From assembly GCF_013122565.1 (NCBI RefSeq), contig NZ_CP053258.1: a stretch of DNA of 64,000 nucleotides; one strand, 5' to 3'. The translations under genes were made by a program, and so were the position numbers. Under the pieces are notes generated by a model. The model ran no database searches. It was not told the origin of the DNA and saw nothing but the letters and a program-made list of their open reading frames with translations. This stretch comes from Escherichia coli (GTDB lineage Bacteria > Pseudomonadota > Gammaproteobacteria > Enterobacterales > Enterobacteriaceae). Positions 7,807 to 9,933 of the stretch are shown piece after piece; within the stretch, counting starts at the first letter, position 1; each line of letters starts with the position of its first letter.

Positions 7807-9933
7807 TTAGTCCTCGTTTACAACCTTTTGCTGGGCGGCTTTTTTGGCCTGAACGCGGGCAATAGCCGCGGCAACTGCCGCTTTGCGCGGATCAACCTGT
7901 TCTTCTGGTTCTGCGTTAGTCTGTTGCTGTTCCAGCTTGCGCGCTTTGGCACGGGCAATAGCCGCTTCGACGGCAGCTTTGCGCGGATCAACCTGTTCTT
8001 CTGGCTCCGCATTGGCCTGTTGCTGTTCCAGCTTGCGTGCTTTGGCGCGGGCAATAGCGGCTTCGACGGCGGCTTTGCGCGGATCGACCTGTTGTTCTGG
8101 CTCGGCATTAGCCTGTTGCTGTTCCAGCTTGCGTGCTTTGGCACGGGCAATAGCGGCTTCGACGGCGGCTTTGCGCGGATCGACCTGTTCTTCTGGTTCC
8201 GCATTAGCCTGTTGCTGTTCCAGCTTGCGCGCTTTGGCGCGGGCGATAGCTGCTTCAACGGCAGTTTTACGTGGATCAGCAACGGTTGCTGCGTCGTTAG
8301 TTTGCTCCAGTTCTGCCTGTTTCGCTCTGGCTTGCGCTTTACGGGCTTCCCGTGCTGCAATAATTGCACTGTTATCCGGGCGTTCGCCCGCTTTAATCAC
8401 AATAGGCTGTGTAGCCTGGGCCTGTTTCTCTTTCACCCGCGCCAGAGCGGCAGCAATCGCATCTTTATCTTTGGCTGCAGGTTGAACGGCTGCGCTCTTA
8501 TGTCGTTCAAGGCGAGCCGCTTTTTCGCGCTCCAGACGAGCCTGGCGCGCTTCGAAACGCGCTTTGGCTTCTGCGGCGCGCTTTTCTTCCTGACGAATAG
8601 CCGCAATTTCAGCTTTTTCCTGACGGAAATATTGCACCAGGGGAATATTGCTCGGGCAAACCCACGCGCAAGCCCCACATTCAATGCAGTCGGCAATGTT
8701 ATGCGTGGTAGCTTTATCGTGTTGCTGACCTTTGCTGAACCAGTACAACTGTTGCGGCAAAAGATCCGCAGGGCAGGCGTCAGCACAGGCGCTACACCGG
8801 ATGCAGCTTTGTTCTTCCTGTGGTTCGCCAAGCTCATTGGCAGAGGGAGCCAACAGACAGTTGGTAATCTTTACGACCGGGACATCCAGCCATGGCAAGG
8901 TAAAGCCCATTAGCGGGCCGCCCATAATCACCATTTGATCGGCAGAGGGGCAGAATCCGGCGTCATTCAATAAATGACGCACTGGCGTCCCCAGCCGTGC
9001 CCAGACGTTGCCCGGGCGAGCGATTGCTTCGCCAGTCAGGGTTACGACACGCTCGGTAATTGGCTCGCCATCAATAACGGCACGTTTCACTGCATAAGCA
9101 GTGCCGACGTTTTGCATTAATACGCCGATATCGGATGAACGCCCGCCATGTGGAACCTGCTTCCCGGTCAGAATGTAGGTTAATTGTTTAGCACCGCCAG
9201 AAGGATATTTGGTTGGAATCACCCGCAGAGAAATATCGTGAGAGTCCGCCAGCACCGCGCGCAGCATGGAAATCGCCTGCGGTTTGTTATCTTCAATGCC
9301 GATAAGAATTTCGCGTGGCTGCAGAATATGCGCAAGAATGCGAATACCCTCTACGACCTGAGCCGCGCAATCCTGCATTAAACGGTCATCGGCGGTAATG
9401 TACGGCTCGCACTCAGCAGCGTTGATAATCAACGTCTCAATCTTATCTCCGCCGCCCTGCAATTTAACGCCTGTCGGGAATCCTGCACCGCCCAGCCCGG
9501 CAACACCAAACTGATGAATGCGCTCGATTAACTCTTCGCGACGGCGAGAGCGATAATCGGCCCAGCCGTCTCGTGGGATCCAGCAGTCTTCACCATCGGC
9601 ATCAATAATCACGCTTAATTCAGCTAAAGCTGAAGGATGAGCCGTAGAGTGGGGCGCAATAGCCGTAACGGTACCCGAGGTGGGCGCGTGAACAGGCAGC
9701 ATTTTGCCGCGACCACGGGTAAGCGGCTGGCCGCGCAATACTTTATCGCCGACGCTAACGCACAACTCACCTTCAGCGCCAATATGCTGTTTCAGTGGAA
9801 TAACAAAACGCTGCGCCAGGGGTACCTGGCGCAGGGGGGTACCGTTGGACTGGGTTTTCATCTCCGGTGGATGGATGCCGCCGTTGAAATCCCAGATTTT
9901 ATTTTTTCTGAATGCAGAGAATAACTTAAGCAT
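7807..9933 (-). CDS. rsxC: Rsx/Rnf complex subunit C, with C-terminal 32-aa tandem repeats
   Basis: 708-aa ORF; two 4Fe-4S Cys motifs ([24 protein letters not shown]); C-terminal repeats [32 protein letters not shown]. Confidence 0.9.
7853..8290. repeat. 96-bp tandem repeat array (about 4.5 copies) inside the rsxC 3' region
   Basis: unit ctttgcgcggatc...cgacggcag recurs at 7881, 7977, 8073 and 8169 (period 96) with a diverged partial copy at each end. Confidence 0.9.

Follow-up and report, generated by a model that had tools for sequence, protein, structure and literature searches.

The tandem repeat array in rsxC of an Escherichia coli genome is a four-unit allele of the published typing marker ms11

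What is the 96-bp tandem repeat in the 3' part of the E. coli gene rsxC, and how does an allele come to encode a protein one repeat unit shorter than that of K-12? The question was raised by an earlier note, made from the letters alone, on a stretch of 64,000 nucleotides of E. coli DNA, hereafter the window. The features of the gene in the window that bear on it are the following.

7807-9933, minus strand: rsxC coding sequence, 708 aa, stop included (ORF list, NCBIfam, Pfam)
8599-9900, minus strand: catalytic core of RsxC, aa 12-445, with barrel-sandwich, FMN/NADH-binding, SLBB and 2x[4Fe-4S] parts (TIGR01945, Pfam, RnfC structures)

Equivalog score, domain set and the rsxABCDGE operon context all identify the protein as RsxC. 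It scored 866.4 bits against the NCBIfam equivalog NF003454 (cut-off 345; aa 12-570 covered) and 594.9 bits against TIGR01945 (rnfC; cut-off 245.95; match aa 13-445). The Pfam models PF13375, PF01512, PF10531 and PF12838, named RnfC_N barrel-sandwich, Complex1_51K (Nuo51-type FMN-binding), SLBB and 4Fe-4S dicluster, each matched above the gathering score. The genes rsxB-C-D-G-E are adjacent ORFs on the minus strand, with the stop codon of rsxC abutting the start of rsxD, and the window runs collinear to the pdxH...rsxABCDGE...mlc region annotated in E. coli CT02, including rsxA-E and nth. Moreover, the core is homologous to the solved RnfC chains 8ahx_C (Azotobacter vinelandii), 7zc6_C (Clostridium tetanomorphum) and 9eri_C (Acetobacterium woodii). 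Alignments to these chains (E-values 4e-121 to 3e-83) are confined to aa 14-498, and the chains themselves, 435 to 496 residues long, are without the repeat-bearing tail of Enterobacterales RsxC.

The repeats lie in that tail. Tandem Repeats Finder reported a single array at 7856-8278 (period 96, 4.4 copies, 90% matches, 0% indels, score 643), located in the 3' part of rsxC inside the 2127-bp minus-strand ORF; it is the sole tandem repeat with a score of at least 50 in the whole 64-kb window. This result bears out the four full copies and one partial, diverged copy of a 96-bp unit that the earlier note had described in the 3' part of rsxC. The note had placed the array at 7853-8290, which is the right place, with ends that overshoot those of Tandem Repeats Finder by 3 and 12 bases. 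In the register of the gene, four full 96-bp units are followed by a diverged and shortened fifth unit that closes the protein.

8182-8277, minus strand: repeat unit 1, aa 553-584, DPRKTAVE...; edge unit
8086-8181, minus strand: repeat unit 2, aa 585-616; identical to K-12 unit 3
7990-8085, minus strand: repeat unit 3, aa 617-648
7894-7989, minus strand: repeat unit 4, aa 649-680, QQQTNA variant; last full unit
7807-7893, minus strand: terminal diverged, shortened unit and stop, aa 681-708

The unit peptide of 32 aa starts with the consensus DPRK[A/T] and ends with [A/T]NAEPE[E/Q]QV, and it is composed of 9 Ala, 5 Glu, 4 Gln, 3 Arg and 3 Lys among its residues. The four units of the window differ from one another at 5 to 12 of 96 positions, keep the reading frame intact and have stretches of 21 to 46 bp in common that are exact and in register. 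Unit 1 is identical to unit 1 of CT02, of two O104:H4 genomes and of UC4315, and unit 4 differs by 2 nt from the last full unit of these same genomes. Unit 3 is absent from the 11 other alleles compared, the nearest known unit being 4 nt away. The terminal shortened unit was found in every allele examined. Three further ORFs that overlap the array (7702-8913 and 7883-8485 on the plus strand, 7818-8369 on the minus strand) were rejected as genes; they are stop-free artefacts of the repeated GC-rich unit.

The rsxC gene of K-12 MG1655 is 2223 bp long and encodes 740 aa, with five full units and the terminal unit. The K-12 length given in the earlier note is therefore correct, and the difference from the 708-aa protein of the window is exactly one 32-aa unit. 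To count units in other strains, we joined the two unique flanks of the array into one query, so that the span of the match in each record measures the array. This flank-only query was used because BLAST pieces obtained with the array itself as query overlap inside the repeat, which makes their spans unreliable. The sample was systematic, comprising 59 of 5424 complete genomes drawn along the score ranking, from a collection biased to clinical and laboratory strains.

Span 1059 bp: 2 full units, 1 genome of 59
Span 1155 bp: 3 full units, 1 genome of 59
Span 1251 to 1254 bp: 4 full units, the class of the window, 13 genomes of 59
Span 1347 to 1353 bp: 5 full units, the K-12 class, 31 genomes of 59
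Span 1443 bp: 6 full units, O157:H7 and others, 7 genomes of 59
Span 1545 bp: 7 full units, 5 genomes of 59
Span 1421 bp, irregular: frameshifted record, 1 genome of 59

Thus, the commonest class has five units (31 of the 59) and the second has four (13 of the 59, about one fifth). Tabulating the repeat count across E. coli, as the earlier note had proposed, gave 2 to 7 units within the sample; a 1-unit allele was found besides, outside the counts of the 59, which brings the overall range to 1 to 7 full units. When the window's own array region served as the query, one place covered at least 80% of it in 1106 of the 5424 complete genomes (BLAST). At the protein level, RsxC read directly at 13 loci measured 612, 644, 676, 708, 709, 740, 742, 772 or 806 aa; an additional Gln codon in some units accounts for the forms of 709, 742 and 806 aa. 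The in-frame variation in repeat number that the note had anticipated is therefore real, with E. coli RsxC proteins of 612 to 806 aa that differ by whole units. The note had also held that reference proteins of 708 aa would speak against its reading. Such proteins are on record (WP_097724730.1, WP_000915770.1 and WP_064226156.1 in RefSeq), and they leave the repeat variation standing: RsxC of 708 aa is a common allele.

These numbers also have a practical side. Differences in RsxC length should not be taken for truncations, and the intact 612-aa allele carries the PGAP flag "incomplete; missing C-terminus". Short-read assemblies, moreover, often break or are mis-assembled at the rsxC array.

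The latter point raises the possibility that the count of four is itself an assembly artefact, a longer array (of five units, for example) having been collapsed by short-read assembly. Many of the tail's relatives in the databases come from short contigs and are fragments labelled "partial" RsxC (P0001 with 184 members, on a 1759-bp contig; P0011 with 204; P0031 with 172), and in one O157:H7 record classed as "complete" the array is frameshifted, with units of 95 and 75 bp. The exact 708-aa protein of the window, furthermore, has no identical entry in a collection of about 15 billion proteins. However, the four units can be told apart individually by their 5 to 12 differences with the frame intact, and the first, last full and terminal units match the edge units of other 4-unit alleles with 0 to 2 differences. 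Since the 4-unit class is common among complete genomes, and includes the genome closest at the rsxC locus, CT02, collapse is unlikely. Nor does the lone protein count for much against this: outside the array, rsxC of the window differs from that of CT02 at 12 of 1656 nt, about 0.7%, and at such divergence a unique protein is expected from a lineage outside the collection. We therefore regard a collapsed array as very improbable.

A search of the literature brought up a VNTR locus with a 96-bp unit, ms11, and its primers, taken from Table 1 of PMC8215070, were placed on the window.

8409-8428, minus strand: ms11 forward primer site, GAAACAGGCCCAGGCTACAC, exact match
7759-7778, plus strand: ms11 reverse primer site, CTGGCGCTGGTTATGGGTAT, exact match, inside the start of rsxD

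Each primer has a single site in the window with 0 mismatches, where 0 chance matches are expected, and the two are convergent with the array between them. The in-silico amplicon at 7759-8428 is 670 bp for the window versus 766 bp for K-12; over all alleles, the amplicons are 382, 478, 574, 670, 673, 766, 772, 862 and 964 bp. The ms11 repeat is listed with a size of 96 bp (PMC8215070 Table 2). The locus belongs to a seven-locus MLVA scheme for E. coli and Shigella, in which 80 isolates yielded six recorded alleles, 0, 4.5, 5, 5.5, 6 and 7 (PMC8215070), and it is also part of another multiplex E. coli MLVA scheme with MG1655 as positive control. According to the primer credit in PMC8215070, the primers go back to Gorge et al. 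2008, J Clin Microbiol 46:1026. The locus is used in PMC8215070 and PMC12175529, and neither of these typing papers names the gene or the encoded peptide. Flanking primers, a 96-bp unit and a copy number polymorphic among strains are all found here, and the array and ms11 are the same locus with no structural difference, the window holding the 670-bp allele. Our data therefore demonstrate that the rsxC repeat array is the published typing marker ms11, known since 2008, and that the window carries an ordinary allele of it. Since the locus has served as a PCR typing marker since that year and the 708-aa allele is common, the finding as such is of little weight.

How the alleles change can be read most directly from a pair of close relatives. 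The first 1656 nt of rsxC are identical in the O104:H4 strains 2009EL-2071 and 2011C-3493, of which the former has four full units and the latter three. Unit 2 of 2011C-3493 is a hybrid: its 5' part corresponds to unit 2 of 2009EL-2071 and its 3' part to unit 3, and the change from one to the other falls between positions 39 and 53 of the unit. Such a hybrid is what a one-unit deletion leaves behind when neighbouring units pair out of register, and a reciprocal gain would look alike. The pair, differing by one unit with a hybrid at the junction, upholds the slippage or unequal recombination that the earlier note had put forward. Moreover, the allele of AVS0282 equals that of ESC53083 minus three consecutive interior units. 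Among alleles, the edge units (first full, last full and terminal) keep their positions with 0 to 2 differences, and the interior units are shuffled.

Compared with the K-12 allele, only the edge units of the window correspond, and unit 2 of the window equals unit 3 of K-12; units 3 and 4 of the window are without a close K-12 counterpart. A one-step deletion of the K-12 allele is ruled out by these unit-by-unit distances. The phrase "one unit shorter than K-12" thus holds for length and fails for descent, since no single step leads from the K-12 allele to that of the window.

In our reading, copy number shifts by whole 96-bp units as neighbouring units misalign, which could come about either at replication (slipped-strand mispairing) or in exchange between sister chromosomes. 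The exact stretches that units of the window have in common are long enough to serve as the substrate. Each event deletes or duplicates 32 codons and leaves a hybrid unit at the junction. Slippage and unequal sister exchange would fit the allele sequences alike. The array is thus very probably an in-frame coding minisatellite, namely the 4-unit allele of ms11, that changes by whole units through misalignment, its peptide being constrained and its copy number only loosely so.

A hypermutable intragenic repeat in a gene whose stop codon abuts the next start might also be a contingency locus, which would switch rsxC or the downstream rsxD on and off by phase variation. The length of the unit speaks against this, because 96 bp are 32 codons and both gains and losses stay in frame; all intact alleles share the terminal unit and the stop codon, with rsxD directly after; and the sole frameshifted case is a single record with irregular units of 95 and 75 bp. 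With a unit of 32 codons the frame does not switch, and the phase-variable reading was rejected; we give it practically no credence.

With the mode of change by misalignment in place, the next point is what the units encode. An AlphaFold2 single-sequence model of residues 416-708 places helices at 554-577, 586-609, 618-640, 650-672 and 682-707, parted by 8 or 9 non-helical residues around NAEPEEQV. The predicted helix of each unit has about 24 residues, from the Pro after Asp to about Gln-Ala. Within the helices the pLDDT reaches about 81-87, dropping in the linkers, and with a pTM of 0.25 the model has no compact fold. As for charge, residues 1-18 of the unit carry net +4 and residues 19-32 net -4, so that the whole unit is neutral. 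Each unit is therefore predicted to consist of a basic helix of about 24 residues and an acidic linker of about 8. On this model, the helix of the unit would begin with an Asp-Pro cap and the array would form a flexible string of helices. Such a string would hang from the cytoplasmic NADH-binding, iron-sulfur subunit of Rsx, beyond the part present in the solved Rnf structures.

The DNA differences among units point to constraint on this peptide. Thirteen of the 16 variable DNA columns among the four units of the window fall at third codon positions. We further compared the 28 distinct units of 11 alleles pairwise in all combinations and tallied the synonymous and nonsynonymous codon differences.

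Helix motif, codons 1-18: synonymous 1536, nonsynonymous 186
Linker, codons 19-32: synonymous 679, nonsynonymous 494

Since the differences between units are mostly synonymous, the peptide, and the helix above all, is under purifying selection. The same module extends well beyond E. coli. A search with the tail retrieved DPRKAAV[EA]AAIAR[AV]KA[RK]K in the RsxC tails of Enterobacter, Klebsiella, Salmonella, Yersinia, Dickeya and Serratia. In these other genera the modules are repeated as well and the linkers are lineage-specific, being very unlike in length and composition; proteins of these relatives that reach the C-terminus carry a similar diverged terminal copy of the module there too. With a profile made from 20 such modules, drawn from several genera, RsxC of the window gave five matches, at aa 553, 585, 617, 649 and 681 (i-E-values 1e-15 to 4e-13). 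The protein of the window thus fits the Enterobacterales tail module, with a repeated helix motif and a terminal copy ending NED. No Pfam family matched the tail at E-values up to 10, and the one NCBIfam model to reach the repeats is that of RsxC, whose end overlaps unit 1. Judged from these comparisons, the helix module of the RsxC tail is conserved across Enterobacterales and selectively maintained, as a part of the protein that has neither a curated family nor a solved structure.

A comparable repeat has been reported in Erwinia amylovora, in which RsxC carries 0 to 5 copies of a 40-aa tandem unit that has been proposed as a strain-typing marker and for whose copy number no link to host, region or year was found (PMC10587187). 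In both species the repeats begin at residue 553 and the first 16 residues are identical, after which E. amylovora has KK and E. coli has RK. The units differ beyond this point: that of E. amylovora spans 120 bp (40 aa), its linker being rich in Ala, Pro and Gln, whereas that of E. coli is 96 bp (32 aa) with an acidic linker, and the former is present in 0 to 5 copies and the latter in 1 to 7 full units.

Conservation of the motif allows a further reading, in which copy number is adaptively tuned: the reach or valency of the tail, and with it Rsx activity (for example the rate at which SoxR is re-reduced), would depend on how many helix modules there are, and lineages would have been selected for particular numbers. 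A helix motif conserved across a bacterial order, with mostly synonymous variation, indicates that the tail is not junk, and multivalency could matter. The tolA tract of E. coli offers a possible precedent by analogy, being likewise an in-frame coding repeat of strain-variable copy number in a housekeeping gene. According to the abstract of the tolA study, synthetic variants with 2 to 39 in-frame copies were compared for rescuing the altered stress susceptibility of a tolA-deletion mutant; in the words of the title, repeat variation modulates stress tolerance (PMC3477136). In tolA, synthetic alleles were thus tested for a stress-tolerance phenotype, and both protein and repeat sequence differ from those of rsxC, of which the tolA paper makes no mention (PMC3477136). 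Two other observations point weakly in this direction and are not specific to the repeat: a non-frameshift deletion in rsxC is among the mutations of olaquindox-selected E. coli, and a machine-learning model of clinical outcome in O157:H7 counts RsxC among its selected features. Against adaptive tuning stand the coexistence in E. coli of alleles with anything from 1 to 7 units, the spread from 0 to 5 in E. amylovora and the one-unit difference between close relatives, all as loose constraint predicts. Our literature search found no work linking rsxC repeat number to a phenotype. We therefore consider adaptive tuning unlikely. Under whole-unit change with loose constraint, which we favor, the peptide motif is under purifying selection and copy number is kept within loose bounds, from 1 to 7; we infer, as a working assumption, that the differences in copy number are near-neutral.

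A more specific proposal concerns what the helix might do. A search of the literature on the function of the C-terminal tail of RsxC/RnfC, or on ydgN repeats, returned nothing relevant. The basic helix, taken as about 18 to 22 residues, might be a docking motif for an acidic partner or membrane surface, and copy number would then set valency and measurably change the output of Rsx, for instance the re-reduction of SoxR. We give this proposal a rather slim chance; if it were true, the typing marker ms11 would be a functional polymorphism.

Finally, the module profile picked out one additional segment upstream of the array.

8419-8460, minus strand: possible old degenerate copy of the helix motif, aa 492-505 (profile i-E-value 0.0015)

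The match is weak and only suggestive, and the segment may be an older, degenerate copy of the helix module.

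A clean natural case of a repeat mutational event at the rsxC array is provided by two O104:H4 genomes, 2009EL-2071 and 2011C-3493. The first 1656 nt of rsxC are identical in the two strains, but one array is a single unit shorter than the other, and a hybrid unit marks the junction.

Two other rsxC records carry unusual annotation. In E. coli 2014C-3655 (NZ_CP027351.1), rsxC (568-2406) is an intact one-unit allele encoding 612 aa, which the annotation pipeline labels "incomplete; missing C-terminus". The ORF nonetheless closes with the normal terminal unit and a stop codon; the label is an annotation artefact arising from the length polymorphism. 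In E. coli O157:H7 TR01 (NZ_CP033605.1), rsxC (268-2564) carries a frameshift annotation, and two units of its array have irregular lengths, 95 and 75 bp; an error of consensus calling or assembly within the repeat is the probable cause, not a true pseudogene. The protein search made with the RsxC tail returned large clusters of "partial" RsxC fragments located on very short contigs (P0001, P0011 and P0031, with 184, 204 and 172 member sequences, respectively), a sign that the rsxC array is a frequent breakpoint in E. coli and Salmonella genomes assembled from short reads.

In the 2395-2610 stretch of E. coli LCP30S3_I5 (NZ_CM149862.1), a 114-bp fragment of the rsxD start is annotated as an rnfD pseudogene and placed between rsxC and an intact rsxD. 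Its presence implies a local duplication of ~216 bp, immediately downstream of the array.

Three long ORFs cross the array of the window in readings other than that of rsxC:

7702-8913, plus strand, long ORF of 403 aa
7883-8485, plus strand, long ORF of 200 aa
7818-8369, minus strand, long ORF of 183 aa

All three were rejected as genes; they are stop-free, repetitive readings of the GC-rich 96-bp unit, and are almost certainly non-genes.

BLAST comparison of window positions 1-49299 with E. coli CT02, the closest complete genome at the rsxC locus, showed that the two are collinear, with an identity of only 98.6-98.7%. For window positions 30000-36000, none of the 5,424 complete E. coli genomes that gave a match had an identity above 99.3%, and no record of the exact RsxC protein of the window was found in a collection of about 15 billion proteins. 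The window appears to come from an Escherichia/Shigella lineage absent from the complete-genome collection.

Small indels also separate the window from CT02. An intergenic segment of ~150 bp between uidC and ydgA (25304-25455) remained unaligned in the BLAST comparison, and CT02 has no counterpart of it at that point. The segment contains a REP/BIME-like palindromic sequence, which reads gccggatgcggcgtaaacgccttatcc...; it is a variable REP insertion of the ordinary kind. Conversely, ~80 bp present in CT02 (42815-42895 of the CT02 locus) are missing from the window at about 42194-42200, near the pntB/tqsA junction.
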